Below, one piece after another: positions 12,541-32,273 of a stretch of 34,773 bases of DNA. Below the pieces are notes generated by a model. That model did not search any database. It was not told where the DNA came from and saw only the letters and a program-made list of their open reading frames with translations. Source of the DNA: Nitrososphaeraceae archaeon. GTDB taxonomy: Archaea > Thermoproteota > Nitrososphaeria > Nitrososphaerales > Nitrososphaeraceae. Location: NCBI GenBank assembly GCA_035250975.1, contig DATFEP010000006.1, positions 1 to 34,773 of the forward strand. Reading direction: 5' to 3'. The translations under genes and the position numbers were made by a program. Numbering within the stretch: the stretch's first letter is position 1; each line of letters starts with the position of its first letter.

Positions 12541-13423
12541 GATTACATCTACCTTTATTGAGGATGTATCTATTTCAAATTTATTTTTTAAAGATATAAA
12601 TTTTAGTCAATATCTATGGATCTGAAATATTTTCAGAGAATATATGGTTTATATGGTTCGTTTAATAAGGAAGTTGGGTCAGCTATCAATGTCATATTTC
12701 TAATATATGGTCATTATATTTGAAATAAAAAGACCATTAACTGTTGTTATTATGTTTTCCTTTGTTTATCTGTACCCCATGTTCAGGGTCTTCGAAATAT
12801 GTCCAAGACTTGTGATCTTTAGGGATAAGAGTACAGGTGATGATTGAAGTTCGAGAAGAGCCAGTTGAAAACAGTTGTTGTAGTTCACAGATCCATATTT
12901 TCTTATCTTTTTCCAATTTATTGTTAGGACATAGTCAAAACCTTCCCATTTATTTTTTATATCGTTATCAATGTCGATTAACATTCTATGAGTAGTATAA
13001 TTTACTTTAGGAGAAGCGGTAAAAAGTGAATTTAACGGATCAAAAAAATGTTAAATTTAGAATATTACCATTAATATAAAAAGTAACAGATTTTAAATCT
13101 AAAAAATTTTCTGTTGTAATATATTATTGCGTTAAATGATCGCAGGCATCATTAGAAGAATCTATAATTTCCTGAAGTACAAAAGGAGACAACAAACCAA
13201 AATCCAAAATAAGAGGCATTAGAAAATTGAATTAACAAAATAAAACAAGTATTAAAAGAAATTTTATATCCAGACTCTTGCTATTATTACAATGGGCAAG
13301 ATAATATAAAATTGTTCCAATAATATTTCATTTTTGTTCTTTTAAACAATAGAGAAAAAAGAAAATACTTTTTAAAATTTTAAATAAAACACTTTTTATA
13401 TAATAAGGCGCTCTTATATACCC

Positions 13424-14143
13424 ATGACAAGATTTGATTTTAGTTATTTCAATTTTTTATTTATCGCAGTGGTAGTATTCATACTTTTAAATTTCACTAA
13501 TATAATATCAGAATCAATCGCGTCTTTTGAGTCTTCTGAGGTTCTCAAAAATGTTGTAAAACCAGAATTAAAAATTAAAGAGCCAGAAATAATAATGGAC
13601 CAAAAATCAGAACTTGAAGCAGATAAAATGGATGATGAGGATCAGGGATATTTTGATGATAAAATTTTTGAGAGTGATGTTGAAAAGGATGTTGATGATG
13701 GAAAGGATGATGATGATGATGATGGAAAGGATGATGATGATGGAAAGCAAAACCAAAATCAGGGCCCAACACCTGGGGCTCCTCAACCTTTAATAGGACC
13801 TACTAGTGCAGGCCCAACAGCTGGCGCTCCTCAACCTTTAATAGGACCTGTTAATACAGCTCCAACAGCTATAGATAATCCAGATAAAATAACAACGGGA
13901 AAAGATAAACCAGTTGAGATAACATTAGCTGGCAGTGATGCAGACCAGGGTGATGAGTTAACAGCTGAAATTGATAAAGCACCTTTGAATGGAAATTTAA
14001 GTACTGTAAACCAGACAACAGGTAAAGTAACATATATTCCAAATCCTAATTTTGTAGGACAAGATGTCTTTACGTTCAAAGTTAAAGATAAACAAGGACA
14101 ATATAGTACTAATGTTGGTACTGTTAAGATCAATGTACAATAG
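13424..14143 (+). CDS. Secreted/surface protein: acidic linker, Pro-rich repeats and C-terminal Ig-like (Big_9/cadherin-like) domain
   Basis: N-terminal hydrophobic helix, DDGKDDDDDDGKDDDDGK, GPT(P/A)GAPQPLIGP x2, then NTAPTA...ITLAGSDADQGD...YIPNPNFVGQDVFTFKVKD. Confidence 0.85.
   Translation: MTRFDFSYFNFLFIAVVVFILLNFTNIISESIASFESSEVLKNVVKPELKIKEPEIIMDQKSELEADKMDDEDQGYFDDKIFESDVEKDVDDGKDDDDDDGKDDDDGKQNQNQGPTPGAPQPLIGPTSAGPTAGAPQPLIGPVNTAPTAIDNPDKITTGKDKPVEITLAGSDADQGDELTAEIDKAPLNGNLSTVNQTTGKVTYIPNPNFVGQDVFTFKVKDKQGQYSTNVGTVKINVQ
13692..13849 (+). repeat. GAT microsatellite units plus a 48-bp-period duplication inside the CDS
   Basis: gatgatggaaag/(gat)n repeated; ggcccaaca(c/g)ctgg(g/c)gctcctcaacctttaataggacct occurs twice. 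Confidence 0.85.
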
Positions 14144-14464
14144 ATCTTTTGTGCAATAAACAAGCTTACAACCATATTCCTCTTTTTTAGCAGTTAATTT
14201 CTAGATTGGCTAGAATATTCAAGAGTACCGAGAAAACATCCATTGTTCAGGTAATTTACTGGACAGGAATTATCAGAGTTTGATTTTATTTACACATAAA
14301 TAGAATCAAAATACCAACAACACAAGGTAAAACATCTATCTAAGAGAAAGAAGAGAAGAATAAAACCTGTAGATTTTATGATACAAATACATATGTATAT
14401 TTAATCTAATATTTACCAAAAATTAAGGGTGTAAAATACAATCATTAAAAAGGAAGAATATAAA

Positions 14465-15847
14465 TTATTCAAGATATATTTTACAAGCCTCGACTAGACC
14501 AGCTGAAACCTCACACATGACCTTTGTTGCTTGTTGATAAGTTGGTTGGAACATTTTAGCTGTTTCTATAGTGAACCCCCTTATGTCTCTGTTCGCACCA
14601 TTGTACCTTAAGCTATACATATAATCATCACAAGTACCAGATGTGGGATAAAGACCAAGACTTGGCTGCGCATGATAATCAGTTCCTTGTACTTCTGTAA
14701 TTGTATTTTTAATACGTCTTCCTGTACTTTCATACCATTCTAAATCTTTTTTATGTATATATTCTTTGTATATACTGTCTCCAGGAATTCCACGCTCTCC
14801 ATCATAATTAGGATTTCCAAAATTCATATCTGGGTCGTCAGTCTGACTGTCATCATCACCCCAAGGATAAAGTATAAGTTCTGAATATGAGTGAATATCA
14901 AATACACAGCTAATGTTTTTGTATTTGTTTATAATATGTAGAACATTCTTTGTTTCTCTTTCTGAAGATGGTTCTTTTCCCTTGTAAATTTCGGTAGCTG
15001 AATTTGTGCTTGTACCTATTCCACTATCCCAGAGGAAATCATAGTTTCTATTTAGATCCACACCTTTCTGTTCAAGCCCAGGATTAGGATTTCTATTCTT
15101 TCTCCACCATACATCTCCATTAGGTGCCTGTACAAATGATCTACCATCTGGATTTACCAATGGAAATATAAAAAGTTCTAGATTCTCTACTATTTGCTTT
15201 ATCTCTTCTGAGGTAAATGATTTTACTCCGAACGTTAATTGTGTATTTGTTGCATATGCCTGACATAAATTTAATGCAAGTTTTACTAGAAGGTCAGGAT
15301 TTAGGATTTCACGAGCATGCACTCCCCCGAGGAATAGTATTCCGTTCTTTGGAGTTGCGTTTTCTATACCTATTTTTATTGCCTTTGAGACATATCCCCC
15401 ATATGTCTTTTCTGGAAGAGATATTAATTGTACAATAGAGGGATACGATTTAGCCATATACTGTAACGCTGAATGTATTCCCTTTGAAGATAAATATCCT
15501 TTAAAAATTGGTGCTTTCTCTATTTTTTCTCTAAAACCTTCCTCTTCTTTTTCTTTTTTAACCGATTCACTCCATTCCTGAAAAGACATTGTCTCTTCTA
15601 TAGCAGGAGTTCGTTTGGGGGATTCTTTCTTTACTAGTACCCTGTAACCATTTTTTACCAATTTATCTACATCGTCTAATGTGATCAATCCCTCAATTGA
15701 GAATTTTTTATCGTTGGTAGGTTTTGCTGTGGCTTGAAATAAATCCAGCTCGAATTTCTGTAAATCCATTAATTGTTGTCTATCATTCGCTATAACTTGA
15801 ACAAAATATTTTGTTGTCATTAAATTTTGGTAGTTATACAAACTCAT
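14465..15847 (-). CDS. M14 zinc carboxypeptidase (carboxypeptidase T/A/B-like) with N-terminal pro-domain, paralogue 1
   Basis: HAREI (HxxE Zn ligands), WRKNR, DLNRNY, DIHSYS (third Zn ligand), YPTSGTCDDY and FTIE (catalytic Glu). No signal peptide. Confidence 0.93.
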   Translation of the reverse strand: MSLYNYQNLMTTKYFVQVIANDRQQLMDLQKFELDLFQATAKPTNDKKFSIEGLITLDDVDKLVKNGYRVLVKKESPKRTPAIEETMSFQEWSESVKKEKEEEGFREKIEKAPIFKGYLSSKGIHSALQYMAKSYPSIVQLISLPEKTYGGYVSKAIKIGIENATPKNGILFLGGVHAREILNPDLLVKLALNLCQAYATNTQLTFGVKSFTSEEIKQIVENLELFIFPLVNPDGRSFVQAPNGDVWWRKNRNPNPGLEQKGVDLNRNYDFLWDSGIGTSTNSATEIYKGKEPSSERETKNVLHIINKYKNISCVFDIHSYSELILYPWGDDDSQTDDPDMNFGNPNYDGERGIPGDSIYKEYIHKKDLEWYESTGRRIKNTITEVQGTDYHAQPSLGLYPTSGTCDDYMYSLRYNGANRDIRGFTIETAKMFQPTYQQATKVMCEVSAGLVEACKIYLE

Positions 15848-15959
15848 AAGAATTTTGGTTATCGTGTGAAATTAGCGTCAATATAAAAAGCCAATGCTCG
15901 CTAATATCAAAAACATATATATTCTGACAACATAAAAATATATATCTATTTTCTCGTCC

Positions 15960-16230
15960 TTGTCTACACTTTCATGGTCAATCTTAAAAATACATGAAAG
16001 TCTCTTCATTCATCATTTCAGAAAAACCTGACGAAAAGAGTCAATCAATATTTTAAAGATGGAATCGAATATTTTGATGACTATTATCCATTTATGCAAA
16101 GAAAAGATAATGAAGGCAATCTATTCATGTATATAACTGGATACAATTCTTTGTTTCTGTGTATAAGTCAAAAACAACAAATAATAATAATCATTTTGAA
16201 TGAAAGGAGTGATTAGTATTTGAATAATCT
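15960..16230 (+). mobile_element. IS6-family transposase C-terminal remnant (pseudogene)
   Basis: Broken reading HSSFQKNL.KRVNQYFKDGIEYFDDYYPF...HVYNWIQFFVSVY resembles the ERxxQYxKDRxExFDDYxPC C-terminus of archaeal IS6 transposases; frameshifted. Boundaries approximate. Confidence 0.7.
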
Positions 16231-16451
16231 ATAGTAAAAATAGCAATATTTTTTTGTAGCATATTAACTTATTGTTCATCAGAATAACATTGTATTATCC
16301 TAGAGATCTAAGGCATTATGTTTGATAAGAGGAATATAGTTGTAAGCCTGTCAATCCTCAGATCTAATTTTTAGTTACTATTATACAGATATATTATTCT
16401 GTCAAAAAATATGACCAAAGAACTTAAATATATTTGTGGATAGCACAAAAC

Positions 16452-16793
16452 ATGGAAAAAAAAGCGGGTAAAGAAGTTGTTGTGAAGGCAGAACAAGATC
16501 TTACTGCAGCCATAGGAAATGTTACATATTGGAGAGTTAGAGTAGGTCCTAGGGGAGGAGATGTAATATTCAAGATAACAGGCTTAAATTTTGCTACTCC
16601 AACGCCATTTTGTATCATATTTCAGAGTAGACAAAGTGAGAATATAGATAATGGATGGGCAGATCAATTTGCAATACAAATTATTGAGACTGCAAGAGAT
16701 TTTATACGTGTTAGGGTTAGAAGGATAGACAATCCATTCCATGGCAGTGGTTGGGGACAACAATTAAACCTAAATTTCATAGTGAGAGAATAG
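16452..16793 (+). CDS. Small beta-rich protein with DQF...VRRID...GWGQxL motif (possibly lectin-like)
   Basis: ATG at 16452 with cttaaatata about 25 bp upstream; alternating beta-strand pattern. The fold assignment is tentative. Confidence 0.7.
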   Translation: MEKKAGKEVVVKAEQDLTAAIGNVTYWRVRVGPRGGDVIFKITGLNFATPTPFCIIFQSRQSENIDNGWADQFAIQIIETARDFIRVRVRRIDNPFHGSGWGQQLNLNFIVRE

Positions 16794-17382
16794 ACTTAGT
16801 TATTCTTTATCTTGCAACTATCTTACCAATGCTAATCCGATAGAAAACCCACACACACTTTTTTTCTGCTTCAAAGAACTATTATATAAATTAGTTAACA
16901 GTTACGTGAACATATTCATTACTCCTATTACTAAAATATCAGTTATGTTTCTACAATTTTTTAGTCTCGACTCTAAAATGATTGCACATAGCAACGGAGA
17001 CTTTTTTAATCCTTTTATTTTCAAAATAGCAGAAAGCAGAACTAGCAATAAGAGATAAGAGATGTATTTGTCGACTATAACTAGACCACGATACATTCTG
17101 CCCTATGATATTTATCTCTATACAAGTTTATTTCTTGATCGAAATAACTACATCATATTGATTAGAAAAAGAGGAGAAGGTGATAAATATTGTTAATAAA
17201 AAATAGTATCTGCAAAATAATGGGACAGTCCGCTACGAATTAATGTTATTTAGTATACAGAATTCAAATAATAAGAAGATCCTCGTTTGTTTAAATACAA
17301 AATACTATTTTTTTAAATACATTCCTAAAAATCTATTTTCTATTATCACTATGTTTTTATATATACTTTTACACCTAAAATC

Positions 17383-18708
17383 ATGAAAAATTTTTCATTT
17401 TTTACATATATGGCAGGGGATAATAATCTCAGCGACTATGGAATGAGGGATATTGAAGAAATGCAAGTAAGTGGTTCTTCACCAAAAACAAATGTAATAG
17501 TAGAAATAGATCAAGAAGGTGATTTTGATGGTGTAATTAGATATGAAATATCTGAAAAGGACCCTCGGACAGGAAAAGCAGATCGTATTGTTAAAGAAAG
17601 AATTGGAGAGAAAGATAGCGGAGATCCAAAAACTCTTGTAGAATATTTAAAATGGGCAAGATCTTTGTATCCTGCAGAAAAATATTTTGTTGTCGTCTGG
17701 AATCATGGAAGTGGATTTAGGAACAGGCTAAGAGCACTTGCTAGAGGTATATCAATAAACGCAAATGGAACTGTGGTTAAAAATGAACAGGAGATAAAAG
17801 AATCTATTACTAGAAGTGGCAGGAGTACTCTATTTCATCATGATTATTCTCAGGAATTCTTACAAAGCTCTGTCAACCTACGTGCAATTGCATCTGATGA
17901 TATGACAGGAAATTCGTTGGACATGATAGAACTTAGAAGTGCACTAACCAAGGCAGGATTTTCTGGAGCAAAAAAAATAGAAGTATTGGGATTTGATGCC
18001 TGCTTGATGAATCTTTTGGAAGTTGCTTATGAAATGTCAAGTTGTGCAAACTTTCTAGTAGGTTCAGAAGAATTAGAACCAGGAGATGGATGGCCATATA
18101 ACACAGATACGCAGACACTTAATACGTATAATGGTAATACAAAACAATTAGTTACAAATTTTGTTAAAAATTATCATAAATATTATCAGTCACGTAGAAA
18201 TCAATGGCCTATCACTCAATCAGGAATAAATCTTGCAGAGATAGGATCTTTATCGGAAAGTCTTAATGGATTAGGAAAATCTTTATCAAATGTTCTGCCA
18301 GACTCTACCATGAAAATTTCAGATATTAGAGAGTCAGTTCAGGCTTATGCAATAGCAGAAGATTATGATGACTATGTAGATTTAGGAGACCTTGCAGATC
18401 TTTTTGTAAATAATATGGATGATGATGTCGTTATTTCTGCAGCAAAAAATGTTCAAAGAGATTTAAAAAAAGTAGTAATAGCTGAAGCACATTTGGGAGA
18501 AGAAGTAAAAAATTCTTACGGTCTAACTATATGGTTTCCCGAAACTGCACACAAATACCATGCACATAAGCTTGTCTATAATAAACTTTTGATGACAAAA
18601 AAATATCCAGAATGGACAAAATTTCTTGCAAAATATCATCCGGCTAAACCAAAAGGTAAAGAATTAAAACGTAGTAAAAAAGTAATAAATAGAAGAATAA
18701 AAAAATAG
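17383..18708 (+). CDS. Clostripain-family (C11, clan CD) cysteine peptidase
   Basis: YMAGDNNL, DSGDPKTL, YPAEKY, VWNHGSG (catalytic His), GFDACLM (catalytic Cys), EVAYE and GSEELEPGDGWPY. No signal peptide. Confidence 0.93.
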   Translation: MKNFSFFTYMAGDNNLSDYGMRDIEEMQVSGSSPKTNVIVEIDQEGDFDGVIRYEISEKDPRTGKADRIVKERIGEKDSGDPKTLVEYLKWARSLYPAEKYFVVVWNHGSGFRNRLRALARGISINANGTVVKNEQEIKESITRSGRSTLFHHDYSQEFLQSSVNLRAIASDDMTGNSLDMIELRSALTKAGFSGAKKIEVLGFDACLMNLLEVAYEMSSCANFLVGSEELEPGDGWPYNTDTQTLNTYNGNTKQLVTNFVKNYHKYYQSRRNQWPITQSGINLAEIGSLSESLNGLGKSLSNVLPDSTMKISDIRESVQAYAIAEDYDDYVDLGDLADLFVNNMDDDVVISAAKNVQRDLKKVVIAEAHLGEEVKNSYGLTIWFPETAHKYHAHKLVYNKLLMTKKYPEWTKFLAKYHPAKPKGKELKRSKKVINRRIKK

Positions 18709-18768
18709 AATCAAATCAATTTTTTATCTTGAAATACTAATATTCCATGACATATATATTGAATAACA

Positions 18769-19715
18769 TTAATTCACAGACTTTGTCAGACATGTCACCA
18801 TATCCTATCGAATCTTGTAGTTCAGTAATAATAAGAAATTGTATCTTTTAAAAAATCAAACACGGATAATAGGTATAAAGTATGATACTTACTTGTCTAC
18901 AGCACTCTACTACTGCATTAAGCGCTGGAGAACTAACAGAAGAATATTCGATCTTTACGGTATCTTTTTTACATTACATCAAGAAATCTTCTGCTAATTT
19001 TAGAGCATTGGGGTGTTCCTCTACCAACAAATATTACAAATTTGCTCGTACCTGTTTTATATAATAAACAAAATTATTGTTGTTAAATTTATCATATTGT
19101 TTGAATAATTGTTACCATCTAGAGATAGGCAGTCAGTAACTGTAACTACAGGTCCCTTGCATGCAGAAATCCATTTCTTTCGTCTAATCACATAATCATA
19201 TAAATAGGGATTAATTCTGTACTAGCAATGTCTAGTCTGATTTTAAACTGACTAGAATCAATTCTACTCTTTTTAAATCTTCTTTTTCTTGGTATAGGCA
19301 GTATTTACAAACCTTCCTTGCGGAGTTTTAGACTTGAATCCTCGTTTGTGTAATAGACGAGAGATATTACCTCATGATATCTCAGTGCTGTCTTTCTATA
19401 CATCATTCGTTATCTGTCTGAAACCCCCATCCTGCATTGCTATCTTCTAATAATTCCTGTCTTATTTGTTAGATTGTAACCTTTTATATGTCTGCAGGTT
19501 TACCACTTTGTTTTTTGTCTTCTAATCATTATAATCTATCATCATTATGTCTGTTGTACCTTTTGTTCCTTTTGTAACCCCAAGTTCTACACCTATGTAT
19601 TCTTTTGTTACATCTTCTTTGTATTATTTGTCTTCTACTACCCTCCTGACAATAAATATTCTTTCCTCTTACATCTGGATCTGATTCTTGTTTGGATGTC
19701 TTATCTAATATATAA
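18769..19715 (-). pseudogene. Near full-length, heavily decayed IS630-family transposase
   Basis: Minus-strand fragments: ESDPDV..RIFIVRRV, SGKP, RYHEV..RLLHKRGFKSKTP.GRFVNTA (winged HTH); YDYVIRRKKWI..KGPVVTVT; LSLDG.QLFKQYDKF; SPALNAVVEC (DDE_3 SPxxNxxE); many stops and frameshifts. Confidence 0.8.
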
Positions 19716-19788
19716 TGGAAATATAAGAGATATTAAACGAAAGTTAGCTAAAATGTGTCAGCGATCTTTGATTAGCCTATATATTAGA

Positions 19789-21147
19789 TCATTTTGATAA
19801 TTCCAGACATATTTCTACGAGACCTGTGGATACTTCAGACATAACCTTTGTTGCTTCAGAATAGCTAGGCTGAAATCTTGTTCCAGTTTCAATAGTATAT
19901 CCAAATATATCTCTTTTTACACCACTAAATTTCAGACTGTAAAGGAAATCATGACAAGTACCTGTCGTAGGATAAAGATTCATGCTTTGTATCACTTTGT
20001 AGTTCTTACCTCTTACAGAAGAAATTGCATTTTTTATTTTATTTCCCATAAATATGTACGAATCTGAGTCCTTTTTGTGTATGTATTCTCTATAGTCACT
20101 ATCTCCTAAATGTCCCCTAACACCATCATAAACTGGATTTAGAAAATTCATGTCAGGATCATGAGTCTGAGTCTCATCGTCTCCCCAAGGATACAGAATT
20201 AGTTCTGAATAAGAATGGATATCTAATACACAAATGATGTTATTGTATGTATTGACCAAATGTATAACATTCTTTGTTTCAGGTTCTGAATTAGGCGCAG
20301 TGCCTTTAAAAATCTCTGAAGAGGGATCCGCACTTGTTCCTATTCCACTATGCCAAAGAAAATCATAATTACGATTAAGATCTACTCCTTTGGCCGGAAG
20401 ACCTGGATTAGGATTTCTATTCTTTCTCCACCACACATCTCCTGTTGGTGATTGTACATATACTCTCCCATCAGGATTTGCCAATGGAAACACAAAAAGA
20501 TCTATGTTTTCTACTACTTGTTTTATGTTTTCAAAGGTAAATGATTTGCCTCCAAAGGTCAGCCCAGTCTTGGAATCAAAAGCTTTACATAAACTGAAAG
20601 CAAGTTTAACCAGTAAATCGGCATTCACAACCTCACGGGCGTGAACACCTCCAACCAATAGTATACCTTTTTTGGAAACATTATTTTTTGTACCTATTTT
20701 TATTGTTTTACAAATACGACCTTGATGTGTTTTTTTTGGTAGTGTTATTAATTCTGTGATAAGTGGAAAGTTTTTTGAAATATATCTTATGGCTGAATCA
20801 ATTCCTTCTGAACTCAAGTAACCAGTAAATGGTAGCATGGATGATGATAGCTCTGTAGTTCCTTCCCTACTTTCTACTTCAAAGCCCTTTTCAGCAATTT
20901 CAACCCAATTCCCAAAAGGCATTGATTCTTCAGTAGCAGGCGTTTTGGTCATAGCTTCCTTTTTCATAATAACTTTGAATCCATTTTCTACTAATTTGGA
21001 AACTTGATCTAAAGTAACTAGTCCCTCTATGCTGAACTCATTTTCAATAGATTTTACGGTAGGTGAGAATAAATCTAATTCAAATTTCTGTAATTGAACA
21101 AGTTGTTGTTTATTCGAAGCAATAATTTCTACAAAATACTTCTTCAT
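19789..21147 (-). CDS. M14 zinc carboxypeptidase with N-terminal pro-domain, paralogue 2
   Basis: HAREV, WRKNR, DLNRNY, DIHSYS, YPTTGTCHDF and YTIE; colinear with and clearly homologous to 14465-15847. No signal peptide. Confidence 0.93.
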   Translation of the reverse strand: MKKYFVEIIASNKQQLVQLQKFELDLFSPTVKSIENEFSIEGLVTLDQVSKLVENGFKVIMKKEAMTKTPATEESMPFGNWVEIAEKGFEVESREGTTELSSSMLPFTGYLSSEGIDSAIRYISKNFPLITELITLPKKTHQGRICKTIKIGTKNNVSKKGILLVGGVHAREVVNADLLVKLAFSLCKAFDSKTGLTFGGKSFTFENIKQVVENIDLFVFPLANPDGRVYVQSPTGDVWWRKNRNPNPGLPAKGVDLNRNYDFLWHSGIGTSADPSSEIFKGTAPNSEPETKNVIHLVNTYNNIICVLDIHSYSELILYPWGDDETQTHDPDMNFLNPVYDGVRGHLGDSDYREYIHKKDSDSYIFMGNKIKNAISSVRGKNYKVIQSMNLYPTTGTCHDFLYSLKFSGVKRDIFGYTIETGTRFQPSYSEATKVMSEVSTGLVEICLELSK

Positions 21148-21823
21148 ATTAATTCAAACATAATTTAGATTTTATTAAATATTTTGGTACATATACTACA
21201 AATCTGGTATATTTCTATTCTCAGAGTATCAAAAATTGTTTTATTTAGTGTAAGCGAACTTGGAATTTTTTTATCCATAGTATGAGATCAAATGTGCTAT
21301 ATTTTTAACTGTTAGTCTTTCTATTGTTATCATCTGGTTACAAATTCTAAAAAAGAATTTATCCGCATCCGAATGCTATATAGTTGATATATGTATTAAG
21401 TATATTATATTCGATTGATGCTGTTATTTTTAGGTAAAATTATCTTCGTTGGCGATGGGAACTCCAGCAAATTTCATACTATCTCATTTTAAAGGATTAT
21501 TAAAAGATTCAATGGTGTCTTTAGAATATTATTATTCGAACAATCAATTTAATTTTTTCCGACAGATGGATAAAAATAACATTCCAATACAGGTGGAGGT
21601 CATTCTATTTCTTGTAAATCTGATCTTATCAAAATCAAGCATTGTATTCATCCATTTAATTACCATGCATTATGTTCAATAAGTCTGTTGAATTTGTCAG
21701 TTGTAATAAGTTTCTCTACAAATTATCTAATTCAGATTATATTTTCTTTCCACAGAAATTGTAGTTATCTTTTACGCAAAATCAGTTTGGTTTGCTTTTA
21801 ATAATTTGTTTAAAAGGATATAC

Positions 21824-21840
21824 TTTTCGGCGCCGAGAAA
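21824..21840. promoter_or_regulatory. Palindrome TTTTCGGCGCCGAGAAA, copy 3 (one mismatch)
   Basis: Intergenic between the divergent M14 paralogue 2 and subtilisin, about 190 bp upstream of the subtilisin ATG. Confidence 0.55.
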
Positions 21841-22029
21841 TTTCACTGAATATTAGCTGCTAATTATGTTTTGATCTGGTAAAATTTAAGTTCAAGAATT
21901 GCTCTGATAAAGACAAAATAGGTTTCAAAACAATATAATGATTTTAGAGATGGTTCATGAGCTTTTGTATGTCTAAATATAATGAGTAGACACCGAAAAA
22001 TATTTAACAGATGATTATCACCAAGCAAC

Positions 22030-23244
22030 ATGGAAGATAAAAAAGAATCTTACATAATAATGTTCAAGCCAAAAGACAAAAGGAAAGACAAGAAAAGTGA
22101 CAAGACAGAAATCTTTGCTTCAGTCACTAAATCTGACCTAAATTTTGTAGAACCAAGGAACAAAATGCGTATTGCTACTATTCCGGATGAAGAGATTTCT
22201 TTTGACATAAATCAATATCAGGCGCCTATATTGACCGCCTCTTTAACGAAGAACCAGGTTACATCCTTAAAGAAGCATGATGATATTGTCTCCGTTGAAC
22301 CAGATGGAAAAGTCTATGCCTTGGGAGGTTTTGAAATCGAGGGACAGCCTTCTCTATCTGCAAGTGAAACTGTGCCATATGGTATTGATGCGGTCAAAGC
22401 ACCATTAGCATGGGACATAACCAAGGGAAAGGGAATAAAGGTTGCAGTGGTTGATACTGGTATTGATTATACGCATCCAGACCTTAAAACAAATTATAGG
22501 GGCGGAATAAGTTTTGTGCCCACAGAAACAGATCCTAAAGATCATAATAGACATGGATCGCATGTTGCAGGTACAATTGCTGCATCCATGAATGGCTTGG
22601 GGGTTATAGGTGTAGCTCCTTCAGCCTATCTTTATGCAGTTAAAGTTCTAGGTAGTGCGGGACAAGGAAACTGGAGTTGGCTTATCGCAGGACTAGATTG
22701 GTGTATCACCAACAAAATGCAAGTAGCAAACATGAGCTTGGGTTCACCAACAGCTGCCCCAACTGCGGTTGAAAGTATTTGTAACCTTGCATGGGAAAAT
22801 GGTTTGATTCTTGTAGCTGCTGCTGGAAATGAGGGAACGCAAAAACCTGTAGGTTATCCTGCAAAGTATAAATCAGTTATAGCAGTGTCTGCAATAGATA
22901 GTTCGAATGTAATTGCTCCTTTTAGCTGCACAGGACCGGAAGTAGAAGTTTGCGCACCAGGAGTAAATATTACGTCAACAGTACCAGGAGGTGGATATAG
23001 TAGTTTAAGCGGGACAAGTATGGCTTCACCTCATGTTGCTGGTGTTGCCGCATTAGCTCTATCTACTCATAGATGGCCACTTGGTGGAGTCCCTCAGAAT
23101 GTTGCAATAAGACGGTTGTTAGCAGCTACGTCTGACAATCTTGGAATCCCCGGACGTGATAAAGTTTTTGGATTTGGAAGAGTCGATGCAGAAGAAGCAG
23201 CTTTCTCTATGGATATTCCACCAACACTGCCAGGAATTCCATAA
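22030..23244 (+). CDS. Subtilisin-like S8A serine protease with I9-type propeptide
   Basis: VAVVDTG (Asp), HGSHVAG (His), AAAGN (oxyanion Asn), GTSMASPHVAG (Ser). Propeptide YIIMFK...VSVEPDGKVYAL. No signal peptide. Confidence 0.96.
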   Translation: MEDKKESYIIMFKPKDKRKDKKSDKTEIFASVTKSDLNFVEPRNKMRIATIPDEEISFDINQYQAPILTASLTKNQVTSLKKHDDIVSVEPDGKVYALGGFEIEGQPSLSASETVPYGIDAVKAPLAWDITKGKGIKVAVVDTGIDYTHPDLKTNYRGGISFVPTETDPKDHNRHGSHVAGTIAASMNGLGVIGVAPSAYLYAVKVLGSAGQGNWSWLIAGLDWCITNKMQVANMSLGSPTAAPTAVESICNLAWENGLILVAAAGNEGTQKPVGYPAKYKSVIAVSAIDSSNVIAPFSCTGPEVEVCAPGVNITSTVPGGGYSSLSGTSMASPHVAGVAALALSTHRWPLGGVPQNVAIRRLLAATSDNLGIPGRDKVFGFGRVDAEEAAFSMDIPPTLPGIP

Positions 23245-23294
23245 CAATTTATTTGATTCGTAAGTGATATCTTCAAAAGTTAGACACAACTAAA

Positions 23295-23352
<58 letters not shown>

Positions 23353-23353
<1 letters not shown>

Positions 23354-23643
23354 CAAGATGGGTTATCTAAAGCTCTTACATCGTTTGAATCCTCTTCTAT
23401 GGCGACTATCTCGGGTATTTTTGAAAGATTTATTATATTTCTCAAGGACACCAGTCCAGAAATATAGTCTATTTTCTCAAAAACATTTGTAATCTCCATT
23501 TCGAATTGATGCAATGTAGACCGATCAAAATTGATGAGATACTTGGGTTGAAATTTTACAAGAACTGCTATTTTCTTCTCTTTATCTACATTGTTATCGT
23601 TTAATAACCTTGTAATTTTTTCATCTATTTTGGAGGTACCCAT
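23353..23643 (-). CDS. Stand-alone subtilisin propeptide/I9 inhibitor-like protein
   Basis: IAVLVKF...ITNVFEKIDYISGLVS...LSKIPEIVAIEEDSNDVRAL follows the I9 beta-alpha-beta-beta-alpha-beta pattern and mirrors the neighbouring propeptide end LKKHDDIVSVEPDGKVYAL. Confidence 0.7.
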
Positions 23644-24285
23644 TTTATACGTTTGTCAAAATACATATATAAAACTTATCTTTAATAGGATAATGATTAA
23701 CATTGGTAAAGTATTATCATAATAAGTAGTTTGTGAGCTATAAATATTCTAAACTTGTGTCCTTTATTATGTTTTAGGTAGTACCTAAGATCTAAAAAAG
23801 TTTTTACAAGCATTTTTGATAGGATTGACTACAAATCCATATTTGGGTTATTGAATCTAATTTCAAGCTTTCAGATAAAGATGAAAAAATATTGTCCATA
23901 GATGTATCTATAAATACACACCATGTATTGTTATAACCTCCATAATTTTATCATTGAACTTTTGCTAAACGGTATAGCTAATAGCTACTCTGATCGAAAA
24001 TTTTGCCTGATAGTAAAAAAGTCAGTATAGTTATGCTAATTGGTATACTTTTTCTTTTTCACATATTTTTTCGAAAAGAATGGAAGATTGAACCTCTTGA
24101 TTGCAATTCGTACGGGTATAAATGTCAATAAGGATTTCTGTGACAGGTAAAGAATAAGTTACTAAATTATATAATCATTTTGAGAGTATATCATAAAAAA
24201 TAAGGCAACATAAAATTTAATACTCGTTTTACTTTTTATCAATTCTTACCAGTAAAATTCAAGTAAATATATTTATTATAACTCT

Positions 24286-24558
24286 TCATTTTTTTGATAA
24301 ATTTACTTCAATATTCTTTTTGGAACTACTTTCAGCTTTGATTTTTACACTCTTTTTGATAAATTCATCTGAAATCACTTCAATAACATATTCTCCTGCT
24401 ACAGGCATTGAAAGAACAAATTTACCATCATCATTTGTTAATGCGGCAATGTCTGGAAGTGGTACTGGTCCTGCTACAAAAGATACCCTAGCTTGGGAAA
24501 CTGGATTACCATTCTTGTCTTTAACTACTCCGTACATTACTATGGGAGTTTCTGTCAT
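24286..24558 (-). CDS. Carboxypeptidase regulatory-like (CarboxypepD_reg/transthyretin-like) domain protein
   Basis: GVVKDKNGNPVSQARV...TNDDGKF...GEYVIEV. ATG at 24558 preferred over TTG at 24600. Co-oriented directly downstream of the S1B protease. Confidence 0.85.
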   Translation of the reverse strand: MTETPIVMYGVVKDKNGNPVSQARVSFVAGPVPLPDIAALTNDDGKFVLSMPVAGEYVIEVISDEFIKKSVKIKAESSSKKNIEVNLSKK

Positions 24559-24625
24559 ACCTAATGGTCCGGATTTAAAAAAATTATTGCTATAAAGCAA
24601 TAATTTATAATATTAATGCGCGTTT

Positions 24626-25585
24626 TTATGCCTTCCATGCACGCATGTTTTCAAATACAGCAGTCACTATCCTGGTACCAGAATTTGTTGTTGCTCCACC
24701 ATAAGCATGAATCGCAACAGCATAGCGATTTCCATTTATAACGCGATAAACCGCACTACCACTCTGTCCCCCATAAGTGTCAATATCATAATAGACCTTT
24801 CTACTGTTGACTGATGCAACCTTATGATAGTCGTACCATTGCGTTCCTTGGGGTTTATCGCCGGGATATCCGGATATATTTACTGTAGATGCTAACAAGT
24901 CCGAATCTGAATAGACGCCAAAACCAAACCAACCTGTTGTATTACCCAAATTTGTCGGAAGTATAATTGCTCCATAATCATAATTTTCGTTACCACTATC
25001 AGTCCATCCTTTTACAGAACGGAAACTAAAACTAGTAACAGCTCCATATGGGAGAGTGTTTCCATTACGTCCTGGCATAACCAATATGCTTTTAACCCAT
25101 CCATCACGCCCAGGAACGCCACTATTCTTAATATAAACAACATGACCAGCAGTAATTAATGTATGTGGTCCGATAAACCAACCAGTGCCTATCCATTTTG
25201 AATTATCTGCTGCTGTAATGAGCAAAGAACTATGTACTCTCCAAGGGTACACACCTGTATTTGTGATTTGTATTCGATTGTCCACTCCATGTACTGTTTC
25301 TAAAGTTACTCCAAATGATGCTTCGCCTATATCTCGCAAATTAGCGGTATCAGGTGCATTAAACATCATATCCATTGATTCAATAGATTTCCTTTTGCCG
25401 GCGACAGCCTCGGTACCATCCTTATTAGCCTTTTCAGCTGTCTTACCTTTACCGTCTAATGGTTCTTCAGAAACAGGTTTTGTTATAAAAAAATCGGATT
25501 CCATATCCTGAACAGTCATTTCATCTTTATTTGATACTGATGTATGTCCACCCTTAGGTGTCGAAATTTTCTTTTTTGCTGACAT
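24626..25585 (-). CDS. Glutamyl endopeptidase-like (V8/S1B) trypsin-fold serine protease, pro-form
   Basis: ITAGHV (His), YDYGAI (Asp), DTYGGQSGS (Ser, with S1 Thr), AIHAYG (S1 His), GYPGDK, and a mature-type N-terminus TVHGVDNR after a charged pro-region. No signal peptide. Confidence 0.92.
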   Translation of the reverse strand: MSAKKKISTPKGGHTSVSNKDEMTVQDMESDFFITKPVSEEPLDGKGKTAEKANKDGTEAVAGKRKSIESMDMMFNAPDTANLRDIGEASFGVTLETVHGVDNRIQITNTGVYPWRVHSSLLITAADNSKWIGTGWFIGPHTLITAGHVVYIKNSGVPGRDGWVKSILVMPGRNGNTLPYGAVTSFSFRSVKGWTDSGNENYDYGAIILPTNLGNTTGWFGFGVYSDSDLLASTVNISGYPGDKPQGTQWYDYHKVASVNSRKVYYDIDTYGGQSGSAVYRVINGNRYAVAIHAYGGATTNSGTRIVTAVFENMRAWKA

Positions 25586-26173
25586 CTTTTTATATTTATT
25601 CTGATCATAAATAAATTTTTTGGTAAGAGGTCGTTTGATTGTTTATTTCCATATATCCTAGACATTTATTTCAAGATATTTTTTATATCTTAATTAAGGA
25701 TCTCTGAAAATTGTCTGCATATAAACAATAATGCCTCTTGTTACTTTACACAGACAAGGTAATTCTCATCCTTCTTTTCCAGTATTGTAAATAACTTTTT
25801 GAATCCATCATCTATTAATTCGTACTGTCTTTCTATAATATTTCTTTTGGGAGGAAATATCTTGAAATTTATGTTATTACAATAGATCATTAGAAATATA
25901 TTTTCAGTACATGAATCATTAAAGAAGTAAGATCAAATACTAATTAACATAATTTTTTCTTGTATATAACATCTAAAAAATCAAGATCTTACAGAAAGAG
26001 TATGTTGCATTATGAAGAATCTGTAATAGAACTTGTGTTAGCTATTATAGGATATCAAACTTAAGCGAATATGAATTAGGATGCTAAAGATACGTTAATT
26101 TAGTTCCATCTATCTGGATTGAGATTTAAAATATTTGGAAAAACTTCTTAAGCAATGGATTAAATTGACTAAT

Positions 26174-27739
26174 ATGTCACTTAACGATAAGAGTGATCGT
26201 TCAATTTATGGTTATTGGGAACCAATAAAATACAAATTTAAAAATTTACCGGTTCATATGGCATTACTTCATACTGGACAGGTACTGGCGTTTGGCGGGT
26301 CTGGAAATGACCCTCGTTATCTTAAAAACCCATTTCCTGCAGACATATTTGAGCCCAATGAAATAGGAAAAGATAATGGTAAAATATTTACAATTTCTAA
26401 TGATGGTATAGAAGGAGACATTTTTTGTGCTGGCCATACATTTCTTCCAGATGGTAAATTATTAGTAGCTGGAGGCACTTTTAAGTACGATGGGTCTGTT
26501 TTAAATCCAAAGATTCCACCATTTTGGGGCCTTGAACAGACTTACCTTTTTGATCCGTTGACACTTAGGTGGGAAAGAGTTCAGAATATGAAAAATGGAC
26601 GCTGGTATCCAACCTGTATAATGATTCCAGATGGAAGAGTAGTTACAATGGCTGGATTATCAAAGAACTTTCCTTGGGTATTTCTCGGAGAAATAGAGGT
26701 ATTTTCCAGTGAAAGGAGGGAATGGAAGACATTGAAGGGGTCAAATTGGAGACTTCCGTTATATCCCAGACTTCACATCCTTCCTAATGGTGATATATTT
26801 TATGCAGGTTCATTTAATACTCATTATGTTTATCCATTTGTGGTCACAGCCTTTCCAAGCGCAACCTTAAATATACATACAGGAAAGTGGAAAACAATTG
26901 GAAATCCAAATAATGTAAAAAGAGAGGAAGGTACCACTGTTTTACTCCCCCTGTTACCTCCTGATTATCCTGCGAGGATTCTTTTGATAGGTGGAGGAAC
27001 GCCCCAAGGAGAGGATGCTATTAGTGATGTAGAATTGATCGACTTTTCTAGATCTAATCCTAAATACCAAAGAAAAGGTAACATGAAAAATCCGAGGTAC
27101 TATAACTATGCTGTAATATTGCCAGATCAGAACATACTAGTTCTGGGAGGAAAAATTGGTAAAAAAGGTCACATACCCGATCATGACCTTAGAACTCTCC
27201 GTCAACGTCACCGTCACGATGGACAATTGCATCACATACCAGAAGCAGTTATGGAACCAGAGTTATTTAAACTAGATGAAGAAAAATGGTATCCAATGGC
27301 TGATATGAAAGTTGACAGGTTATATCATTCAAATGCATTATTGTTACCTGATGGTCGAGTAATGACAGCAGGAAGTAATCCAGAAAGAACTATGAATGAA
27401 TTAAGGATAGAGATTTTTCATCCACCATACCTTTTTAAAGGCATGCGTCCAACAATAAATAAGGTTCCAGATCGACTGAGATACGGAAATACCTTTGAAA
27501 TAGAAACAAATGAAGCTTCAGAAATCGGATCGATTGCATTGATCCGACCTTCGGTAACTACGCATTGTTTAAATGTTGACCAGAGATATGTAGGACTAGA
27601 ATTTAATCAAATAAATTCAAATATTTTGAAAACATCAGTTCCTACAAATAGAAATATAATTTTACCAGGATACTATATGTTGTTCATAGTAAGTGAAAAT
27701 AAAATTCCATCTGTTGCAAGATTTGTAACTGTTAACTAG
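26174..27739 (+). CDS. AA5 copper radical oxidase (galactose/glyoxal oxidase-like; Kelch propeller plus C-terminal DUF1929 Ig domain)
   Basis: DIFCAGH (cofactor Cys), RWYPT (cofactor Tyr), RLYHSNALLLPDGRV (Tyr/His Cu ligands), VTTH (His), PGYYMLF...PSVA. ATG at 26174 preferred over TTG at 26135. No signal peptide. Confidence 0.93.
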   Translation: MSLNDKSDRSIYGYWEPIKYKFKNLPVHMALLHTGQVLAFGGSGNDPRYLKNPFPADIFEPNEIGKDNGKIFTISNDGIEGDIFCAGHTFLPDGKLLVAGGTFKYDGSVLNPKIPPFWGLEQTYLFDPLTLRWERVQNMKNGRWYPTCIMIPDGRVVTMAGLSKNFPWVFLGEIEVFSSERREWKTLKGSNWRLPLYPRLHILPNGDIFYAGSFNTHYVYPFVVTAFPSATLNIHTGKWKTIGNPNNVKREEGTTVLLPLLPPDYPARILLIGGGTPQGEDAISDVELIDFSRSNPKYQRKGNMKNPRYYNYAVILPDQNILVLGGKIGKKGHIPDHDLRTLRQRHRHDGQLHHIPEAVMEPELFKLDEEKWYPMADMKVDRLYHSNALLLPDGRVMTAGSNPERTMNELRIEIFHPPYLFKGMRPTINKVPDRLRYGNTFEIETNEASEIGSIALIRPSVTTHCLNVDQRYVGLEFNQINSNILKTSVPTNRNIILPGYYMLFIVSENKIPSVARFVTVN

Positions 27740-27957
27740 ATATATTGATAGCAATTTTGAGAAAATGAATTTGAATGAGTGGCATATTCTGTATATATTT
27801 GGTCAGATCTGAAATAGGAAAAAAATGCAATAACTTGTATTGTTCTATGATGCCTGTGCATTTTTTATCATGTTTTAATTATCAACATATGGAAATTATT
27901 TAGTGATGTACAATTAGATCGGATATTTCTGTTACAAGTTTCGATGTTTACAATAAA

Positions 27958-28398
27958 TTATGTCGGGGGTTCTATTAGAAATCTTTCACATATTATCTTA
28001 GGTCCATGTTTGAGAATAATGGCAACTATATAAGCTACTATCCCAGAGATTAAATTCCAAGGAGACGGTAATACTTTTTTTAAAATTTCTATTAATTGTT
28101 CTATAAATTTGTCATTTATTTTTTCATCTTTATTTTTCTCCCACCAATTGCAAACTTGTTTAGCTATTTTTTTCCAATACTTTTTAAGAAATTTAAATCC
28201 TACATCTTTTAAGTCTGTGGGAATTATCATCTTTTCTTCAAGGAATTTCTCTTTCTGTACATTTTTCTTGCTAGATTTTTCAAATTCATTAATTTTCTCT
28301 GTTATAACAACTCGTGTTCCCAAACCTTGATAAATTTCATTCAAGTTTTTTTTCCTTAGCTGTTTAACAATTGCAACATCTTCATTAGACATGATCAA
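27958..28398 (-). CDS. Hypothetical Lys-rich protein with amphipathic/hydrophobic C-terminal helices and a Cys pair
   Basis: 146 aa: charged N-terminal half, then GFKFLKKYWKKIAKQVCNWW, LISGIVAYIVAIILKHG and PKIICE. ctttatata about 15-25 bp upstream on the minus strand. Confidence 0.75.
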   Translation of the reverse strand: MIMSNEDVAIVKQLRKKNLNEIYQGLGTRVVITEKINEFEKSSKKNVQKEKFLEEKMIIPTDLKDVGFKFLKKYWKKIAKQVCNWWEKNKDEKINDKFIEQLIEILKKVLPSPWNLISGIVAYIVAIILKHGPKIICERFLIEPPT

Positions 28399-28508
28399 AA
28401 CATCTATTGCTTGTATATAAAGATAATTATCTAAAGACAGTCAAGCAGATAAAAAGTCTTACCTATGTCAGTAAATGAAATTCTAACCTATGTGTATAAG
28501 TACAACAA

Positions 28509-29560
28509 CTAACTATAAATTTTAGATATTTTGTATATGTCGCCACCATAATTGGTAACATATATGTTATTATTATATGCACTTATTATTATTTTTTCTA
28601 TATTATAAATATAGTATGGAGATTTATATAATGATATCACATCCACTAATCTGTAAGACGTGTTCAAGATGAAGATGTTTCCTGCATAATGCACGTAGAC
28701 ATTCCTATAATTGTCACTAAAGATATTTTGAGGATAATCATACAAAGACAGGCTTGAGCTTCTTATCTCAAAAAAAGGTGAATGCAGATTCTATTTTCGT
28801 TGTACCCAATTGTTGTGTCAAAACATGAATACTGTCTGGATTTAATTGAGAATTAATATCTTTATTCCTTGTATGTTTATTCGGTTTGTGTTGTTTAGTG
28901 TAACCCCGTCGTAAACATATAGTATATAACCTGATACTACATATATTGTGTTAGCTGCAGAATTACAAAAATTGGACAACTAAGATAGCAAAAAGGGAAT
29001 TGATCCTTTTTAATATCTATTGTTTTACTATCAATAATTAAGAGATTTTTACCTTTAAGACCATATACTTTTTCAGTATTTTTGTTTACATTTAATTTAA
29101 CCATGCTATACTCTGATGAATTTGATTCATAAATAGATATTATAGATTTTTTGTCTTGGATCTCTTCTACGAAAATGACATCTTTTCCTTTTTCTGAGTT
29201 AGTTTTTGTTGCAATATATAAGAGATCATTAATTGGATTAAATACCACATCTCCTGATCCCGCAATTTGGTGCACATAATTCAAATTTGATGTTTTTGCT
29301 ACCGTCTATAAGGTTAATTATGAATAAAGTATTTTGATTGTATTGCCAAATGTTTTGTGACCCGTAAAATATATATATTTATCATCGATAACGACGTCAT
29401 CTATGTAATACTTATAGTTACAATCTTGAATTTTAGTGACATTCCATTTTTCAGCATCAGTTTGATCAGAAACATCAAAAATGAAGATAGTGAGTACAAG
29501 CAGAACAATTATTGTTCTGATAAAGGAAAAATATTTATTATAAATTGAAAAATATTTGGT
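28509..29560 (-). pseudogene. Frameshifted secreted YncE/YVTN-like beta-propeller protein
   Basis: Consecutive minus-strand fragments in different frames: signal-like IIVLLVLTIFIF, VVFNPINDLLYIAT, VNKNTEKVY, NSAANTIYVV, YVYDGVT, YNNNIYVTNYGG, which are YncE blade motifs. Could also reflect assembly errors. Confidence 0.6.
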
Positions 29561-29948
29561 TGGGTTAGATTTAAACTTCTCTGTGCATATATAAACTGGC
29601 TCTAAAGTAACACAAAATTTATAAATTAAATCGAAAAAATCTACTAAAATTGAGTACATAACAGGTAAACAAAACATATCTAATATTTTATACTAACTTA
29701 AGAGCCTAGAAACCTATATCTATAAAAATGATGGCAATGAAGAGTTATTTTTTAATTAAAATACTCTTATTGGCAAATGTTTGTCAAGCTAAAAAATATA
29801 TAATATACAAAGAGATTTGTTTACTTTAACCTGATCTTTTCCTGATGAAACTTGGGGGAAGTATATTTCTAGAGGTTAGATCGAAGAAGAATAATATAAT
29901 ATAATGTGTCCACGTCGTTAGTCTAACATAAAAAAAATTATAATTACT

Positions 29949-30234
29949 GGCTCTGATGAGTTAAGACTACTTCACCTCGCTTCTGTGTTTGTTATAAATA
30001 TGGGAAGAACCCAATCGTTGAATTCAATCCCATACAGCAACAAAATGACTTCTCTTTTGATCCTTAAAAGGTTCCAATGCATTAGACGTATTACGTAAAC
30101 TGAGACAACAAGAAAATACACATACTAAGAATACATTACAATAAAGGCTGAGGTTCTATTTCTAACAAATTTTAGCAACACATGTTAGAGTAGAACATTC
30201 GCAGCTGAATCTATTTCCTTAAATTAACAGGTGC
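29949..30234 (-). mobile_element. Internally deleted IS6-family element (MITE-like), with both putative terminal inverted repeats
   Basis: Minus strand reads LLKFVRNRTSAFIVMYS*YVYF..LSLRNTSNALEPFKDQKRSH.VAVWD*IQRLGS (archaeal IS6 N-terminus), joined directly to an element end. ggctctgatgagttaag (29949) versus reverse complement gcacctgttaatttaag (to 30234) match at 11/17. Confidence 0.7.
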
Positions 30235-32070: not shown

Positions 32071-32273
32071 TACAATCTCATATAAATTTTATTTAATTTT
32101 GTTTTTATATATTTTTGAGATTTTTATCTATAAAAAGAGTACTAAAAAAAATATGGATGATTCTACTAACTGTTTGACTTATATATGAACCCGTACTGTG
32201 AAGCCAAATCAGACTCTAACATGTTCAACATCTTTACAGCAAGGGATTTTGACAAGAACTATTTACAGATAGC

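Follow-up and report, generated by a model that had tools for sequence, protein, structure and literature searches.

The stretch of DNA described here, hereafter the window, is a complete contig (C31) of 34,773 bp from the genome of a Nitrososphaeraceae archaeon (G000; 2.49 Mb in 91 contigs, GC content 30.6%, 94.6% complete with 2.6% contamination), and it carries a cluster of peptidase genes at positions 14465-28398. With about even chances, this 14.4-28.4 kb segment represents a variable-region cluster of separate gene cassettes encoding latent cytoplasmic zymogens together with their cognate inhibitors. At least two of the proteases sit beside small proteins that probably keep them off inside the cell. 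Contamination or mis-binning of the contig was considered and rejected: its left 12.5 kb match two congeneric genomes at 89-94% identity and its GC content at third codon positions (GC3) is typical. For comparison, each gene was searched separately across 200 Nitrososphaeraceae genomes; relatives from this family are titled Nitrososphaerales or Nitrososphaeraceae.

Reading frames were taken to begin at the first ATG, GTG or TTG codon following a stop. As stated by a previous reading of the window that used its sequence only, the cluster encodes five peptidases with intact catalytic motifs, whose families could be assigned by Pfam or by a match to the structure 1p3c and whose motifs were all located. 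Two M14 carboxypeptidases lie on the minus strand, M14a at 14465-15847 (460 amino acids (aa); PF00246, 188 bits) and M14b at 19789-21147 (452 aa; PF00246, 183 bits). The plus strand carries a C11 clostripain-family cysteine peptidase at 17383-18708 (441 aa; PF03415, 195 bits) and an S8 subtilase at 22030-23244 (404 aa; PF00082, 219 bits) whose N-terminal part is an I9 propeptide (PF05922, 27.4 bits). The fifth enzyme, an S1B glutamyl-endopeptidase-like protease hereafter termed S1, is encoded on the minus strand at 24626-25585 (319 aa; 1p3c match with an e-value of 5.8e-21). Two small minus-strand genes neighbor these proteases, one encoding a free-standing I9-fold protein of 96 aa at 23353-23643, identified from an AlphaFold2 (AF2) model and Foldseek, and the other a CarboxypepD_reg-like beta-sandwich of 90 aa at 24286-24558, extendable to 24600 (104 aa; PF13620, 36.4 bits). 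The corresponding Pfam cut-offs were 21.6 bits for M14, 25.8 for C11, 21.2 for Inhibitor_I9, 32.3 for CarboxypepD_reg and 27.6 for Trypsin_2.

The same reading had noticed that these zymogen-type peptidases lack signal peptides, and this observation holds. Export was judged by hydropathy only, using the largest Kyte-Doolittle mean over 12 residues within the first 60 residues. By this measure 10/10 island proteins reach at most 1.34, whereas the flanking open reading frames (ORFs) at 243-1, 13424, 30709 and 32731, described earlier as bearing clear signals, score 2.6-3.6. Unrecognized upstream start codons had been named as a possible source of signal peptides; no upstream in-frame start could add a leader to any island protein, because the ORFs already begin at the first possible codon after a stop and no longer frames exist. 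Relatives were scored as leader-bearing when the same 12-residue mean reached 2.3 or more. None of the 119 other best C11 matches and none of the 120 best S1 matches did so, and the fetched orthologues of M14 (n = 7), S8 (n = 2) and the copper radical oxidase also encoded in the cluster (n = 7) are likewise without a leader. Judged from these sequences, the leaderless state is a trait of the families and is not peculiar to genome G000.

The S1 gene falls short of the Pfam cut-offs (25.1 against 27.6 bits for Trypsin_2, and also just below that for Trypsin), its best solved structural match being the Bacillus intermedius glutamyl endopeptidase 1p3c, whose mature N-terminus aligns at Thr97/Val98. 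The catalytic triad corresponds to His148, Asp203 and Ser275. Searches returned 3,524 homologous proteins at e-values up to 0.001, and the best 120 matches are 310-346 aa long with at least 96% query coverage and at least 65% identity. In an alignment of 38 sequences, the pro-region of about 96 aa displays motifs kept across domains (GGHT..SN, PSEGK and DGTE.V.G) as well as an invariant DIGEASFG, and at least 90% of the sequences keep Glu96, the residue directly ahead of the mature start of GluBI. This conservation of Glu96 immediately before the mature start suggests that S1, if Glu-specific, would free itself by self-cleavage after Glu96; we infer its Glu/Asp specificity solely from this junction and from an acidic P1 residue in the partner loop described below. 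In all six loci examined, four of them in Nitrososphaeraceae (G000, G102, G123 and G108) and two in Acidobacteriota (G217 and G219), the beta-sandwich gene lies directly beside S1. The acidobacterial genomes have GC contents of 54% (G217) and 66% (G219) and their S1 protease is about 68% identical to the archaeal one, a resemblance that points to a crossing of the cassette between domains at some time.

To examine the pair, the complex of the S1 mature domain (residues 98-319) with the 90-aa neighbor was modeled. The interaction prediction score from aligned errors (ipSAE) was 0.93 in 3/3 runs and 0.00 for the best of three controls, with a predicted local distance difference test (pLDDT) of at least 90 for the partner and at least 98% of contacts common to the runs. 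Of 157 solved complexes, 116 attain this mark, against 2 of 215 mismatched pairs; these counts are rough since own alignments were used. The predicted interface involves protease residues His148, Ser275, 270-276 and 293-298 and partner residues 33-40 (PLPDIAAL), with Ser275 contacting partner residue 36 and His148 contacting residue 35. In this model Asp36 of the beta-sandwich can be read as the P1 residue of a loop, PLPD|IAAL, lying substrate-like in the active site, because such a residue fits an acidic-specific protease and because an acidic residue occupies this place in its relatives: 18/18 stand-alone relatives found by profile search (78-128 aa) keep Asp or Glu at P1 within GPxPL[PQT][DE][IV]AAL. 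The sequence-only reading had recognized a CarboxypepD_reg protein here, which is indeed present, and had mistaken its role; gene adjacency, the complex model and the conservation of the loop indicate that it is most likely a dedicated S1 inhibitor rather than a carboxypeptidase accessory. We read it, on the strength of the model, as a member of an inhibitor family so far undescribed, and no paper describing the S1/beta-sandwich pair was found in the Creative Commons full text of PubMed Central (PMC) and bioRxiv. The two genes are probably co-transcribed. Two contigs from RNA libraries run across the boundary between S1 and the inhibitor gene, by 88 and 105 bases. More broadly, metatranscriptome contigs from three libraries of three studies (90-99% likeness) cover the S1, S8, I9-fold, 113-aa protein, both M14 and C11 genes.

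Both acidobacterial loci (L189, 5171-6295, and L190, 8718-9527) show a further ORF behind the S1-inhibitor pair that encodes another signal-less protease-like protein, one with a GDSGA trypsin-fold motif and the other with an HEVGH zincin motif; their Pfam matches are all sub-threshold.

A second pairing was observed at the S8 subtilase, in which the I9 propeptide starts at residue 7 and the triad motifs lie at 141, 175 and 328. The sequence-only reading had also proposed a stand-alone I9-like protein, and that label is right at the fold level given its Foldseek matches to propeptides. The AF2 model of the 96-aa protein (pLDDT 81) has the order beta-alpha-beta-beta-alpha-beta, and its Foldseek list, in which no match attains an e-value of 0.001 or below, is headed almost wholly by subtilisin propeptides (probability 1.00, query TM-score (TMq) 0.55-0.70, best e-value 2.5e-3). 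The model superposes on the prosegments of Tk-subtilisin and BPN' with a root-mean-square deviation of 1.4-2.2 Å over 61-93 columns. By hhalign it resembles the S8 propeptide with 41% probability and an e-value of 2.7e-4, and it has no Pfam I9 match. S8 orthologues 61-67% identical occur in G102, G123 and G108, and the I9-fold gene adjoins S8 in four genomes, G000 and these three, where the neighbors are homologous small ORFs. The modeled fold and this position make the 96-aa protein a candidate inhibitor or chaperone of S8; since S8 is itself made with a covalently attached I9 propeptide, the free copy would act as a second lock or as a chaperone.

The C11 peptidase shows His108 and Cys207 invariant in 13 aligned sequences, a long Arg/Lys-rich linker separating the His and Cys blocks, and it matches the C11 zymogen structure 6mzo with an e-value of 3.3e-15. 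It scores 50 bits against the NCBIfam clostripain equivalog, whose cut-off is 550, and is for this reason considered a family member and not clostripain itself. No conserved partner emerged from 80 bacterial C11 neighborhoods, the recurring cell-division genes reflecting the synteny of one lineage. A metagenome scan with C11 yielded a single locus of 2.3 kb. In M14a the motifs HARE, DIHSY and IETA were located at 177, 317 and 427, and its paralogue M14b (about 61% identity), which is transcribed divergently from S8, also carries motifs of the HARE, DIHSY and IET(A/G) type; the nearest solved structures of M14b are carboxypeptidases A4 (CPA4, e-value 1.2e-29), B and T. Both copies have some 105-115 residues ahead of the catalytic domain, where neither Propep_M14 nor any other Pfam family could be matched at e-values up to 10. 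M14 likewise stands divergently beside S8 in G108 (L157), in the same arrangement as M14b and S8 in G000, and an M14a orthologue in G019 is 82% identical (81% at the DNA level).

We then asked whether these genes form a single unit. The left flank shares 89-94% DNA identity with the two closest genomes up to position 12539, where synteny ends, and the following segment (12540-32500) is absent from G016, G012 and G017 and represented only by M14a in G019, with otherwise only dispersed repeats in common. The 24 genus relatives searched yielded no C11 orthologue; three of them, G003, G004 and G010, contain only C11 domains of about 30% identity in much longer frames. The island genes have GC3 z-scores of -1.5 to +0.8 relative to 1,538 genome ORFs, the window contains no tRNA gene, and there is no integrase among its Pfam matches. 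The block, absent from close relatives and typical in GC3 with neither tRNA gene nor integrase, is thus accessory yet compositionally native, and the proposal of a recent horizontal acquisition as a block was not supported. Nor did the genes behave as a single inherited unit, as had been supposed: the components are patchy, each on its own, with C11 orthologues in 5, S1 in 4 and M14 in 26 of the 200 family genomes, often on different contigs. C11 and M14 are both present in G080, a complete family genome of 3.43 Mb. The expectation that the peptidase genes recur together in other Nitrososphaeraceae was borne out in TH526 (G123), G102 and G108. A 7-kb contig of TH526 joins C11, the S1 pair, an I9-like gene and S8 and adds a signal-less M4 peptidase with an Emfourin gene (PF20242, e-value 1e-13), and an M10 matrixin, also signal-less, is encoded on the contig of G102. 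All four S1-bearing family genomes also have M14 matches, against 26 of 200 overall, a comparison that does not amount to a statistical test because these genomes are related. Taken together, the linkages of the S1 pair, of S8 with the I9-fold gene, of M14 with S8 and those seen in TH526 and G102 indicate that signal-less peptidase genes tend to gather in Nitrososphaeraceae, in changing combinations. Near-identical DNA of 17383-25585 was found in metagenome runs from 14 studies, and in one independent DNA run contigs spanning u119-C11-M14b and inhibitor-S1-oxidase reproduce the arrangement of the window.

If the genes are indeed cassettes of latent enzymes, they would encode peptidases of normally secreted families, made without an export signal and in a latent form, with a linker or an N-terminal domain in the C11 and M14 enzymes at the usual place of activation segments. 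The enzymes would build up inside the cell under a double lock of pro-region and inhibitor, a combination that makes sense if they could otherwise become active in the cytoplasm. S1 could release itself by cutting after the conserved Glu96, and once the inhibitors were outrun or destroyed the set would degrade intracellular proteins, the endopeptidases acting before the carboxypeptidases. The outcome would be a regulated self-proteolysis serving defence, cell death or starvation turnover.

A connection with conflict systems was suggested by the neighborhoods of relatives. M14 orthologues 62-82% identical (in G003, G004, G010 and G019) lie among C14, CHAT, TPR-pYEATS, MAP3K_TRAF_bd/TPR-S, astacin and trypsin genes, and an S1 paralogue in G003 is also found among genes of caspase (C14), CHAT and TPR type. 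At one such locus (L111, G003:C300, 2312-7681), an S1 paralogue 48-50% identical stands beside a 1,033-aa CHAT-like/TPR/pYEATS protein and a C14 caspase, a trio that looks like a three-gene unit resembling a conflict system.

Several observations weigh against latent cytoplasmic cassettes, and in particular against their role in defence or cell death. No C14 caspase or CHAT homologue was detected in G000 by tblastn at e-values up to 1e-5, and Pfam found no NTPase or sensor, caspase, CHAT, STAND or adaptor domain in the window; for these reasons the conflict-system link is weak. It leans on the neighbors present in other genomes, which shared variable regions could perhaps explain. No PADLOC model fits the cluster beyond generic S8 and trypsin similarity: membership in a PADLOC system was examined and rejected, as the matches (the subtilase model at 1.2e-31 for S8, LmuA at 2.3e-5 and RT-Protease_XI at 5.6e-4 for S1) were judged to be fold-level only. 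The S1 cassette is rare, having been found in 4 of the 200 family genomes and in only 1 of 300 additional Acidobacteriota, and no partner was identified for C11 or M14. S1 is present in just 2 of 15 C11-bearing bacterial genomes, one of which (G217) was picked because an S1 match named its family; for that reason the unbiased figure is 1 of 14, and we rejected the genome-level link between C11 and S1 in bacteria as too weak to use. Two relatives of the inhibitor (P0375 and P0302) have lipoprotein-like N-termini, and the pair may therefore act outside the cytoplasm in some bacteria. The absence of leaders was judged by hydropathy, which is not equivalent to a SignalP prediction, and export by a non-classical route may occur. 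Finally, RNA-library contigs may hold DNA and are no proof of a single transcript.

These points bear directly on the alternatives. The enzymes could be extracellular digestive peptidases that supply organic nitrogen and are released non-classically, in vesicles, by lysis of a subpopulation or through an unknown exporter, with the inhibitors as cytoplasmic safety catches in the manner of staphostatins or emfourin, an explanation that we find possible but rather unlikely. Peptidases of the C11 family are Arg/Lys-specific, and together with a Glu-specific S1, a broad S8 and two A/B-type carboxypeptidases they would make a complementary set for digestion; all these families are classically secreted, the genes are present in soil RNA libraries, the two lipoprotein-like leaders mentioned above would be in keeping with a function outside the cell, and excerpts of the protealysin literature discuss action on other cells (PMC9505478). 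Such a role is harder to reconcile with the lack of any leader in 119 C11 relatives, 120 S1 relatives and the island proteins, and with S1 pro-region motifs common to archaea and diderm Acidobacteriota, whose only shared dedicated exporters are Sec and Tat; moreover, no transporter gene travels with the cassettes. A more specific proposal, in which S1 and the beta-sandwich form a toxin/immunity module for abortive infection or cell death that soil archaea and bacteria have in common, and in which the latent proteases of Nitrososphaeraceae (S1, S8, C11, M14 and, in relatives, M4/M10) have assembled into an intracellular death cascade, the loss of one inhibitor unleashing the rest, is doubtful in our view.

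The sequence-only reading had favored one horizontally acquired island acting as a coordinated, cross-activating cascade, with the oxidase and the small proteins among its members. The genes do stand together and are missing in the nearest relatives, the synteny with G016 (90% DNA identity) stopping at 12539; a second sample (run X2) has the same arrangement at 90-99% likeness, C11, S1, S8 and the beta-sandwich gene are linked on the TH526 contig, and the Lys/Arg-rich and Glu-rich junctions read from the sequences would suit cleavage by C11 and S1. We nevertheless hold such a cascade to be improbable in view of the differing distributions and often differing contigs of its components, of the native GC3 with no tRNA gene or integrase, of the housekeeping contexts of oxidase orthologues, and of the 80 bacterial C11 loci, which, the TH526 contig aside, all lack M14, orthologues of S1, the oxidase and the small proteins. 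We give as little credence to the protease-inhibitor pairs being selfish addiction modules, a protease toxin with an unstable inhibitor antitoxin, that spread among soil archaea and bacteria and pile up in variable regions with no benefit to the host. A two-gene cassette that keeps about 68% protein identity between domains while its DNA varies from 31-66% GC, its patchy and rare occurrence and the repeat-filled spacers would agree with this; however, the pro-region already provides latency, for which an addiction module has no use, the loci showed neither plasmid nor phage context, and the strong conservation of the pro-region motifs suggests regulated activation. Latent zymogens locked by cognate inhibitors remain the reading that we retain, at the even chances stated above.

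The spacers of the cluster contain several repeated sequences. A genus-wide repeat at 16003-16219 has 13 own-genome matches, as does its usual partner repeat at 29980-30235. Elsewhere the two partners are inverted with respect to each other at a distance of about 270 bp, whereas in the window they form a direct pair separated by 13.7 kb, the arrangement that an inversion with one breakpoint in the spacer would produce. Further repeats of these two families lie at 14139-14372 and 32273-32500, and both families have dozens of matches in genus relatives. Between C11 and M14b, a repeated element of about 1 kb with no long ORF (18751-19801) has 4 own-genome matches including itself, and many sites in G016, G012 and G017 match it with 67-73% identity; possibly it represents an insertion sequence in decay. 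Such repeat-filled spacers fit a recombination-prone variable region. The spacer between M14b and S8 carries a GC-rich perfect palindrome, TTTTCGGCGCCGAGAAA, at 21820-21845, which belongs to a set of 14 genome copies of TTTTCGGCGCCGA(A/G)AA, all intergenic, three of them on contig C31 (3386-3411, 10617-10642 and 21820-21845). This palindrome may or may not serve as operator of a protease regulon, its copies being found on the promoter and tail sides of genes alike.

Beyond S1, a GlxA-like copper radical oxidase (AA5-like) is encoded on the plus strand at 26135-27739 (534 aa; PF09118, 88 bits; PF07250, 53.5 bits). Its best structural relative is Streptomyces GlxA (4unm, e-value 1.7e-63), and its segments FCAGH, RWYPT, LYHSN and TTHCL align with those of the GlxA copper site, which we take to provide the Cys, Tyr, Tyr-His and His residues, respectively. 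It scores 314 bits against the NCBIfam GlxA model, whose cut-off is 800, and lacks the part of GlxA between chain residues of about 112 and 230. The PDB entry of GlxA names a secreted protein, whereas the archaeal oxidase and 7/7 fetched orthologues are signal-less; for a radical copper oxidase, a cytoplasmic location would already be unusual. Homologues occur in 42 of the 200 family genomes, a tally that includes G111, flagged as unpublished; 11 are orthologues with 54-63% identity, and a second copy, 31-36% identical, lies on contig C87. Inclusion of the oxidase in the cluster, as initially proposed, was abandoned: because its orthologues sit in unrelated housekeeping contexts without peptidases, we treat it, from these neighborhoods, as a bystander of the peptidase cassettes.

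The two remaining genes of the cluster encode a beta-sandwich protein of 113 aa on the plus strand at 16452-16793 (119 aa if a possible TTG start at 16434 is used) and a protein of 146 aa on the minus strand at 27958-28398, with a weakly hydrophobic C-terminal segment and no family match. Together with the 96-aa protein, these small ORFs (113/119, 96 and 146 aa) had no family match in Pfam, NCBIfam or PADLOC, and for the 113- and 146-aa proteins, the M14 N-terminal domain and the S1 pro-region no credible Pfam match appeared even at e-values up to 10. The 113-aa protein has 8 relatives among 5.8 billion proteins and none in the 200 family genomes. Its AF2 model (pLDDT 69) is all-beta; identification as a pyocin fibre tip (Z 7.0), an H-type lectin (Z 6.1) or gp53 was rejected as below the level that separates kinship from a merely similar arrangement. 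For the 146-aa protein, the look-alikes in the Atlas are only unnamed bacterial proteins, and no homologue stood beside the oxidase or the peptidases in any fetched locus.

Outside the cluster, positions 1-120 of the window, at the contig end, contain four tandem 24-bp repeats; the ORF around them encodes a protein that bears a signal and has AVLPANAT repeats. Since 113 of these bases recur at C52:17285-17397, an assembly break within the repeat is suggested. The gene at 11422-12540 encodes a fusion of a class III nucleotide cyclase with a receiver domain; it shows weak similarity to PycC (Pycsar cyclase, e-value 2.4e-13) and has at least two paralogues, about 47% identical, on C20 and C23. 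Within the gene of a Big_9/cadherin-like surface protein, RNA-library contigs from two studies show a variant join at 13860-14138 ('goes back 279'), which probably reflects strain differences in repeat number.

Ammonia-oxidising archaea are usually pictured as minimal chemolithoautotrophs, and the recurrence in this family of cytoplasmic, inhibitor-locked "digestive" proteases would point to an unstudied layer of regulated proteolysis, with possible roles in defence, cell death, starvation nitrogen recycling or unconventional release. The most concrete product of this analysis is a testable candidate inhibitor family, a CarboxypepD_reg-like sandwich of about 90 residues with an invariant PLPD|IAAL loop, whose pairing with S1 spans Archaea and Acidobacteriota in the six loci examined.

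When compared with known systems, S1 is closest to the glutamyl endopeptidases of Bacillus and Staphylococcus (GluBI 1p3c and V8; MEROPS S1B), which are its best matches with e-values of 5.8e-21 to 1e-8 and with which it shares the conserved triad and a mature N-terminus right behind the pro-region. GluBI/V8-type enzymes are secreted with signal peptides and, to our knowledge, have no dedicated co-encoded inhibitor, whereas S1 has a signal-less pro-region of about 96 aa, motifs common to both domains and an adjacent inhibitor candidate. Free I9 inhibitors exist elsewhere, an example being yeast proteinase B inhibitor 2, and the 96-aa protein is modeled with the fold of subtilisin propeptides but has no Pfam I9 match. 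In Bacillus subtilis, according to excerpts of one study (PMC3901451), the intracellular subtilisin Isp1 is controlled by IPI, an Ig-like all-beta inhibitor. This system resembles the S1 pair in associating an intracellular serine protease with an all-beta inhibitor and differs in that the protease partner of the beta-sandwich is S1B and not S8, that no BsuPI-type Pfam match was found and that the predicted binding is substrate-like through one loop. In caspase/CHAT/TPR conflict systems, as portrayed in passages of Kaur et al. (eLife 2021, PMC8195603), trypsin-like and caspase-like peptidases serve as effectors or activators, and the terms subtilisin, carboxypeptidase and clostripain have 0 occurrences each in the main text of that article. 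The likeness lies in the sister genomes, where M14 orthologues and the S1 paralogue stand among C14, CHAT, pYEATS and TPR-S genes, in contrast to the window with its lack of caspase, CHAT, STAND NTPase and adaptor domains. Protealysin is intracellular and has emfourin in the same operon, an organization likened to effector/immunity genes in excerpts of the literature (PMC9505478). The pairs in the window involve serine proteases (S1B and S8) with partner folds unrelated to emfourin, and tblastn detected no emfourin or M4 gene in G000. What they share with the protealysin-emfourin system is a signal-less zymogen of a classically secreted family encoded beside a small cytoplasmic inhibitor gene, and an actual pair of Emfourin and M4 is present in the related TH526 cluster.

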